DNA of 52,021 bases, taken from positions 1 to 52,021 of the forward strand of contig CALQZS010000003.1 in assembly GCA_943349945.1 (NCBI GenBank). The letters are read 5' to 3'. This DNA comes from Candidatus Nomurabacteria bacterium. Lineage in GTDB: Bacteria; Patescibacteriota; Minisyncoccia; Phycocordibacterales; SBAW01. The notes under the pieces were generated by a model, which was not told the origin of the DNA, made no database searches, and saw only the letters and a program-made list of their open reading frames with translations. Below are positions 33,238 to 34,702 of the stretch, one piece after another. Made by a program: the position numbers and the translations under genes. The stretch's first letter is position 1. Every line of letters starts with the position of its first letter.

Positions 33238-34702
<1,465 letters not shown>

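Follow-up and report, generated by a model that had tools for sequence, protein, structure and literature searches.

The 16S ribosomal RNA (rRNA) gene in a 52,021-nt stretch of contig CALQZS010000003.1 (the window, meaning that whole stretch), from a Candidatus Nomurabacteria bacterium of the Candidate Phyla Radiation (CPR), ends without the CCUCC of the anti-Shine-Dalgarno (anti-SD) sequence. The anti-SD is among the most conserved segments of rRNA, and its pairing with the Shine-Dalgarno (SD) sequence is the textbook mode of start-site selection in bacteria. The explanation that best accounts for the data, and that we consider highly probable, is that the anti-SD has been lost, that start codons are selected without SD:anti-SD pairing through leaderless first genes and re-initiation at later ones, and that the tail of the 16S rRNA is kept as part of a hairpin. 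The core fact, absence of the anti-SD motif from a subgroup of Parcubacteria, is already published (Tsurumaki et al., 2022, RNA 28:1041, PMC9297842), and the value added here therefore lies in supporting anatomy rather than in discovery. That study gives a motif-detection rate only, with CCTCCT found in just 48% of the 16S genes from Parcubacteria; the replacement tail, the trailer hairpin, SD usage and promoter geometry are examined here. No description of the leaderless architecture, the SD statistics or the tail hairpin for Paceibacteria was found in the open-access literature.

The 16S gene (Table 1) is a full-length match to the bacterial small subunit (SSU) rRNA model of Rfam, scoring far above the gathering score of 50 bits, and it is the sole copy in the window, where no other SSU match to Rfam occurs. 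Helix 44 is intact, as are helix 45 and its GGAA loop, the site of the dimethyl-adenosines. The preliminary description of this DNA had placed the end of the helix 45 analogue at 34690; the last paired nucleotide is in fact 34689, G34690 being unpaired, while its other coordinates stand. Positions 34691-34702 read AATAATTCACAT, so that the gene ends in GGAAUAAUUCACAU at the place where the bacterial model has GGAUCACCUCCUU, and a separate Rfam run on this region aligns model positions 1519-1533 (ugGAUcACCUCCUUu) to UGGAAUAAUUCACAU. Compared with the canonical tail, nine of 13 positions are changed and four retained, and the sequence AUUCA (34695-34699) occupies the positions of CCUCC (E. coli 1535-1539), where U1537 and C1538 alone survive. 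The model alignment and the direct reading of the letters thus both bear out the initial observation that the tail lacks CCUCC, and as judged from them the anti-SD of a functional 16S rRNA is lost by substitution, CCUCC having been replaced by AUUCA.

The same type of tail is found across a large group of relatives. A scan for the exact 39-nt segment containing helix 45 (GTCGTAACAAGG...GTCGTGGAA), in which each GTDB species was represented by a single genome, returned at least 120 matches, all in independent species-level assemblies. Of the matches listed, 117 relatives have enough sequence for the next 40 nt to be read, and in all of these the stretch is free of CCTCC; the commonest tail is GGAAUAAUUCAAUUUGAAA. 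Comparison of related 16S 3′ ends, which had been proposed as a check of the missing anti-SD, thus agrees with it. The matches with specific labels are Paceibacterota/Parcubacteria or Patescibacteria (Nomura-, Zambryski-, Vogel-, Kaiser- and Campbellbacteria, among others), and we take the other labels on many automated-bin records, chiefly “uncultured Candidatus Saccharibacteria,” to be mislabels. The window 16S rRNA is 90.7% identical to that of one relative (L083) and ~80-84% identical to most other group members; overall, its identity is 80-91% to Paceibacteria relatives as against ~73% to CPR bacteria that keep the anti-SD, which, together with the shared 39-nt segment, supports the placement of the organism in Parcubacteria.

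An anti-SD-less tail behind an identical 39-mer in at least 120 assemblies is more than chance, and since 16S identity within the anti-SD-less group falls to ~80%, the trait spans roughly a class. Anti-SD loss is thus a class-level trait of Paceibacteria, neither an artefact nor special to the window organism. The clade and the loss are the same as in the published Parcubacteria subgroup, the window helix 45 being identical to that of the five named candidate groups above and of other Paceibacterota. The published anti-SD-less lineage is associated with loss of ribosomal protein uL1 and with frequent loss of bS21 and Era (PMC9297842), and Era, whose binding site is GAUCACCUCC, is missing from most CPR bacteria and mostly absent in Paceibacteria (PMC10582724, PMC12641178). 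Within the window, rplJ-rplL (15432-16401) occurs without rplK-rplA in front, the upstream gene being an 831-aa open reading frame (ORF; 12600-15095) with no Pfam match, an arrangement that fits, but does not prove, the reported loss of uL1. Elsewhere in the 16S gene (33670-33715), the universal 515F primer site reads GTGCCAGCAGGAGCGGTAA, with GGAG for CCGC and a compensating CUCC for CGGC in the partner strand, and by this reading standard 515F primers would mismatch the window organism.

It could be supposed that the window gene is decaying, accessory or merely a product of faulty assembly, and that a canonical 16S gene with CCUCC resides elsewhere in the genome, since 52 kb of that genome are visible and Alteromonas is known to carry rrs copies with different tails (PMC6107228). 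However, the gene is full length and well scoring, with helix 44, helix 45 and the GGAA loop intact; it is served by a promoter-like site, a processing stem and a terminator of its own (Table 1); its tail type recurs in the independent assemblies described above; and the lack of SD motifs before genes agrees with the tail. In addition, a closed chromosome of the clade, OY970290.1 (681,747 bp), matches its own 16S helix-44 segment at one place only, and this speaks against a second rrs of canonical type in that relative. The probability of a hidden canonical copy is, in our estimation, close to negligible, and the window gene is a normal, functional 16S rRNA gene with the anti-SD-less tail of its clade.

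Downstream of the tail is a long, folded trailer. Because the 3′ arm of the pre-16S processing stem resides at 34888-34908, positions 34703-34887 are inside the precursor, and this 185-nt trailer is strongly structured (z = -7 for its fold). The first large trailer hairpin is accompanied by a motif, G[UG][CU]G[AG]U (mostly GUCGAU), that is present 25-90 nt past helix 45, often at ~50 nt, in 103 of 119 trailers, compared with a mean of 12.6 after shuffling. GUCGA is present also in trailers of CPR bacteria that keep the anti-SD, and the motif may be a processing signal. The nearest CCUCC is 130 nt downstream of the tail, at 34821-34825, where it is paired in the fold with GGAGG at 34836-34840; these coordinates, given in the preliminary description, are exact, and its placing of the CCUCC within the pre-rRNA trailer is confirmed by the enclosing leader-trailer stem (33183-33203 with 34888-34908). 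On the forward strand between 33402 and 35200, CCTCC occurs only at 34821 and 34961, and GGAGG at 34836.

Conceivably, the mature 16S rRNA could acquire this CCUCC through removal of 34703-34820 or through a long 3′ extension. Introns are frequent in the rRNA genes of CPR bacteria, and a probable group I intron is present in the 23S gene of the window; the trailer, too, is long and highly structured, and the CCUCC, being inside the processing stem, is part of the precursor. Against this, Rfam intron families give no match to 34350-35000 even at E <= 1, and there are no SD motifs before genes with which such an element might pair. Furthermore, the CCUCC is sequestered by GGAGG, and the homologous hairpin in the closest relative (L065) is CCCCG/CGGGG and differs again in L083, a comparison that rests on these two rows, that of L089 being uninformative. 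CCTCC is found within 300 nt in only nine of 117 relatives among the matches listed, at scattered and unrelated positions. Since the helix is kept while the CCUCC sequence is not, the downstream CCUCC does not behave as an anti-SD and, from its pattern across relatives, is very unlikely to be a hidden one. Splicing or processing of the 34703-34820 segment, the route by which the preliminary description had allowed that its claim might fail, is largely excluded by the absence of an intron match and by the lack of conservation of CCUCC, and recovery of an anti-SD by this path or by extension can be regarded as exceedingly improbable.

Rather than pairing with mRNA, the tail appears to be engaged with the first bases of the trailer. 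CPR bacteria with an anti-SD have GGAUCAC-CUCCUU-UCU-AGGGAG at the 16S end, with the variants UCUGGAG and UCUAAGGAG, such that the anti-SD is paired to an SD-like trailer start. At the same place, the window has a short hairpin (Table 1), and anti-SD-less relatives have UUCA-AUU-UGAA, UCC-AAUC-GGA, UUCC-AUUU-GGAA or CUCA-AUU-UGAG; two further examples, CUCCU-UUUA-AGGAG (L021) and UCCU-UUUA-AGGA (L104), look like relics of the anti-SD-keeping hairpin. Pairs were counted in Python from an anchor on the C1538 equivalent, as an ungapped MAFFT alignment left hairpins with 3-nt and 4-nt loops out of register. A stem of at least 3 bp anchored in this way is present in 94.5% of 91 unique tails, compared with a mean of 46% (maximum 59%) for shuffled 3′ halves and with 81% (maximum 90%) for 3′ halves swapped between sequences that differ in the 5′ arm. 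Between the anti-SD-keeping and anti-SD-less groups, the C1536-G pair has become U-A and the C1539-G pair A-U, changes that are two-sided and keep the pairing.

A tail-trailer hairpin of the same kind is found in Firmicutes and many other bacteria (CCUCCUUUCUAAGGA type), where the last 16S bases pair with the first bases of the spacer and the mature 16S end is in the loop or adjacent to it. The CPR version is seen here directly. In the window hairpin, by comparison, neither the anti-SD of the 5′ arm nor the SD-like character of the 3′ arm survives, pairing having been kept by changes on both sides. By analogy, the hairpin most likely marks the 3′ maturation site, with the mature end in its loop near 34702, and the tail is likely still constrained, being retained for 3′ processing of the pre-rRNA. 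Because the stems are short and energetically marginal, retention of the hairpin is suggestive rather than proven.

Loss of the anti-SD is matched by an absence of SD signal. Genes were called crudely, as long non-overlapping ORFs from the first ATG, by one procedure for all sets and with internal ATGs as the control, and SD 4-mers were scored at spacers of 3-12 nt. Five sets were compared: the window (42 genes); 120 anti-SD-less loci; 67 CPR loci keeping GGAUCACCUCCUU (Magasanik-, Uhr-, Falkow- and Moranbacteria and others, the subset of rows L122-L241 with a short helix-44 gap); 53 Campylobacterota/Peregrinibacteria loci; and 50 kb of E. coli. An SD 4-mer precedes 7% of window genes (control 5%), in keeping with the earlier remark that almost no gene in the window has an SD motif, and 10% of genes in the anti-SD-less loci (control 10%). 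The proportion is 12% in CPR loci that keep the anti-SD (control 6%), 33% in Campylobacterota/Peregrinibacteria (control 7%) and 45% in E. coli (control 9%). Strong SD 6-mers are present before 2.4% of genes in the window, 3.4% in anti-SD-less relatives, 7.0% in CPR bacteria keeping the anti-SD, 9.5% in Campylobacterota/Peregrinibacteria and 8.6% in E. coli. Even the highly expressed rplJ, rplL, recA and efp have no SD upstream in the window. The free-energy profiles that had been proposed as a further check agree: hybridization energy displays a clear trough in E. coli (-4.5 versus a median of -2.0 kcal/mol), and no trough exists upstream of window starts with either the canonical tail or the organism's own.

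CPR bacteria that keep GGAUCACCUCCUU already have, alongside their weak SD use, a -10 box 5-8 nt before the ATG in 20% of genes versus 5% of controls. This pattern suggests that reliance on SD sites decayed before the anti-SD was lost.

These data also bear on the idea that the new tail (AAUAAUUCACAU) serves as a novel anti-SD and recognizes a ribosome-binding motif that is itself novel and complementary to it. Within subclades the tail is indeed conserved, and the 120 relatives, scored against their own tails, have a dip of ~0.7 kcal/mol; the dip, however, is confined to mRNA windows overlapping the start codon, and the window's own-tail profile is flat upstream of starts. The k-mers found in excess before genes are either AT-rich or include stop codons, and they show no complementarity to the tail. 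Moreover, tails vary between subclades while complementarity to the trailer is kept, which points to the cis hairpin, and in the survey of Amin et al. (2018, PMC6107228) no variant anti-SD was accompanied by an SD variant to match. A replacement pairing is therefore rejected on the flat own-tail energy profile and the lack of enriched complementary k-mers, and we judge it quite improbable.

What does stand upstream of many genes is a promoter-like element. TANNNT separated by exactly 6 nt from the ATG is found before 21% of window genes and 15% of 542 genes of relatives, against a background of ~2%, and a 50-kb E. coli sequence treated by the same procedure has no such peak. The stricter TA[TG]A[AC]T and the extended TGNTANNNT peak at the same 6-nt spacer, and the box is often TGnTANNNT. 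The preliminary description had noted -10 boxes abutting start codons, and this sharp spacing substantiates it. In addition to the example in Table 1, the 6-nt geometry precedes the ATGs at 10501, 11240, 11982, 22029, 23005, 38826, 41863 and 50313, and for recA, ftsK and secD the box is 7-8 nt from the start codon; by our own count, ~13 of ~30 apparent first genes have a box at 6-8 nt. No -35 elements are evident by eye in the few genes inspected. From the 6-nt spacer, transcription is expected to start on the A of the AUG. A Pribnow box at this distance is diagnostic of leaderless genes (Zheng et al., 2011, PMC3160421), and its geometry at start codons defines the “group C” genomes of GeneMarkS-2 (PMC6028130). 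Nine other window genes are in close contact with their predecessor, starting from 14 nt inside to 9 nt past the end of the upstream gene, which is compatible with termination-reinitiation.

It is possible to read the same boxes differently, as AT-rich ribosome-binding motifs rather than promoters, in which case initiation would resemble that of Bacteroidetes, with leadered mRNAs whose A-rich, unstructured upstream regions are recognized with the help of ribosomal proteins. Genes without a -10-like box do have ~40% A at positions -10 to -2, and some genes close behind a predecessor also have a box (41863 at 9 nt, 2674 at 14 nt and 45384 at 30 nt). Yet the element follows the exact Pribnow pattern (T1, A2, T6) and is often TGn-extended, an extension that a ribosome-binding motif would not need, and its spacing peaks at a single nucleotide distance, 6 nt, as expected for a transcription start at the A of the ATG. 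Bacteroidetes-like initiation thus seems unlikely, and leaderless transcription from these boxes is the preferred reading.

Similar comparisons can be drawn with other systems. Bacteroidetes ribosomes (Jha et al., 2021, cited in PMC9723584) share the outcome of start selection without SD pairing; there, CCUCC is present in the 16S rRNA and occluded by ribosomal proteins, and most genes have an A-rich motif ~9 nt upstream, whereas in the window CCUCC is absent from the gene, and the enriched upstream signal is a Pribnow box with a TG extension rather than a plain A-tract. Group C genomes (for example Actinobacteria and Deinococcus-Thermus; PMC6028130, PMC3160421) share with the window the Pribnow box 6-8 nt before many first genes. 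They keep the anti-SD as well as SD sites for leadered and internal genes, while in the window the anti-SD is gone, SD sites before leadered and internal genes are at control level and the energy profile is flat. A further parallel is a set of 128 other organisms without an anti-SD, mainly Flavobacteriia, Mycoplasma and Carsonella, which are also without SD motifs (Amin et al., 2018, PMC6107228). In some Flavobacteriia, Mycoplasma, Candidatus Carsonella and Hodgkinia (Lim et al., 2012; PMC6107228) there is likewise no CCUCC, no SD enrichment and no novel SD. Those bacteria, however, belong to scattered genera, mostly AT-rich, host-restricted or of Bacteroidetes type with A-rich upstream regions; the genome of the window, by contrast, has a GC content of 51% and a leaderless-type promoter signature, and represents a class-level loss within which 16S identity falls to ~80%.

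Overall, the absence of SD enrichment, the flat energy profiles and the 6-nt -10 box support, as far as statistics on sequence can, the suggestion of the preliminary description that the organism has abandoned SD/anti-SD initiation. In the mechanism that we propose, Paceibacteria ribosomes would select starts without SD:anti-SD pairing. The first genes of transcription units would be expressed from leaderless mRNAs, whose transcripts would begin at or next to the AUG, directed by the -10 box 6 nt upstream, and would be bound directly by the 70S ribosome or by the 30S subunit with initiator tRNA. Downstream genes, the majority of which abut or overlap the preceding stop codon, would be started by terminating, re-initiating ribosomes. 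The tail, for its part, would keep a short hairpin with the first trailer bases that marks the 3′ maturation site. A bolder proposition, whose chances we hold to be evenly balanced, is that Paceibacteria are a free-standing, class-level radiation in which SD:anti-SD initiation has been eliminated, its place being taken throughout the genome by leaderless starts from extended -10 promoters together with termination-reinitiation, as the end of a decay begun earlier in the CPR, with the former anti-SD bases surviving only as the 5′ arm of a processing hairpin through compensatory substitutions.

Several observations, besides the limited part of the genome in view, weigh against this account. The trailer is unusually long, conserved and structured, and the mature 3′ end near 34702 is a prediction. 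The mini-hairpin has only marginal stability (0 to -3 kcal/mol) and its core pairs hardly vary, so that support from covariation is modest, with 81% in the swap control against the 94.5% observed. A -10 box at the canonical distance is found in only ~20-30% of genes, the route taken by the remainder being inferred. Strong SD-like motifs in relatives retain a weak residual excess (3.4% versus a control of 1.7%). In one tail class, UAUUUCAAGGUGAA or GGAAUAUUUCAAGGUGAA (L006, L007, L025, L075 and others, a Zambryskibacteria-like subclade), which lacks CCUCC, the strong SD-like motifs AGGAGG or AAGGAG nevertheless precede five of 28 genes at canonical spacing (18% versus a control of 1.5%, in small numbers). 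Finally, all of the evidence is computational and the start calls are crude, at least one of them, that of folD (28381), being wrong. For this gene (28246-29040), the first-ATG start truncates the match to the catalytic Pfam domain, and the real start is therefore probably the GTG at 28246, 6 nt past the upstream gene.

Other features of the rRNA genes in the window are unusual in arrangement. The 16S gene is unlinked from the 23S (18307-21733) and 5S (21882-21995) genes, which reside ~11 kb upstream, an unusual rRNA gene order, and its transcription unit contains no tRNA, the nearest being tRNA-Ile at 38546, beyond the terminator. The 23S gene is 3427 nt in length, compared with 2925 nt for the model, and has an insertion of ~361 nt (21082-21442) relative to the other 23S genes compared. 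Within it, the Rfam family Intron_gpI matches 21202-21435 (39.3 bits, E 1e-7, under the gathering score of 50), and the insertion probably represents a group I intron that contains no ORF; the gene is expanded a second time, by ~90 nt, near 20246-20376. A match of the Rfam Phe_leader family to 34934-34987 (23.7 bits versus a gathering score of 55) was rejected, as it is merely the terminator stem of the 16S unit. Directly past that terminator is a gene (34968-38363) for a protein of ~1117-1131 aa with right-handed beta-helix and laminin-G/concanavalin-like domains, which, from its domain content, is probably a surface protein. As the longest-ORF start at 34968 is inside the terminator hairpin, the real start is probably downstream, at 35010 or 35034.

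Table 1. Elements of the 16S transcription unit and an example of a start-proximal promoter box, in window coordinates
Feature	Position	Strand	Basis and remarks
Promoter-like site, TTGACT-16 nt-TATACT	32882..32909	+	10/12 consensus matches; consensus match only
Outer 12-nt stem	33026-33037 paired with 34927-34938	+	Encloses the processing stem
Pre-16S processing stem, 5′ arm (RNase III-type leader-trailer helix)	33183..33203	+	21-nt inverted repeat, 95% complementary to 34888-34908
16S rRNA gene	33237..34702	+	Rfam RF00177, 1361.7 bits, model positions 1-1533
Helix 45	34666..34689	+	10 bp (C34666-G34689), GGAA tetraloop 34676-34679; fold and Rfam alignment
3′ tail GAAUAAUUCACAU, replacing GAUCACCUCCUUA	34690..34702	+	Rfam alignment and direct reading
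Tail-trailer hairpin, UCA-CAU-UGA	34697..34705	+	Counterpart of CUCCUU-UCU-AGGGAG in CPR bacteria keeping the anti-SD
First large trailer hairpin, GUUCUGCCC-CUCGUACGAG-GACAGAAC	34711..34737	+	Fold; compensating changes in L065 and L083
Trailer motif GGCGAUC	34744..34750	+	Copy of the conserved G[UG][CU]G[AG]U
Trailer hairpin CCUCC-AUACGCGUCA-GGAGG, with the nearest CCUCC	34821..34840	+	Direct reading and fold
Pre-16S processing stem, 3′ arm	34888..34908	+	Arm sequence conserved in L065 and L083
Intrinsic terminator of the 16S unit	34952..34986	+	15-bp stem, five-T run within the 3′ arm; inverted repeat and fold
Extended -10 box, TGaTATACT-6 nt-ATG (45384)	45369..45386	+	

Three increments over the published loss are worth confirmation, namely the signature of leaderless genes, the retention of the hairpin, and a decay of SD use that is already under way in CPR bacteria with an anti-SD. 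The existence of a whole class of environmentally abundant bacteria without an anti-SD means that the mechanism is dispensable outside the tiny genomes of endosymbionts. It also matters in practice. In these genomes, starts will be misplaced by gene finders built on models of the ribosome-binding site, and the 3′ end of the 16S gene will be set wrongly by annotation pipelines that search for CCUCC; neither heterologous expression of CPR genes nor expression in CPR bacteria can rely on SD sites. Moreover, as the clade is also mostly without Era, without uL1 and often without bS21, it offers a natural system in which to learn what leaderless initiation requires of the ribosome.

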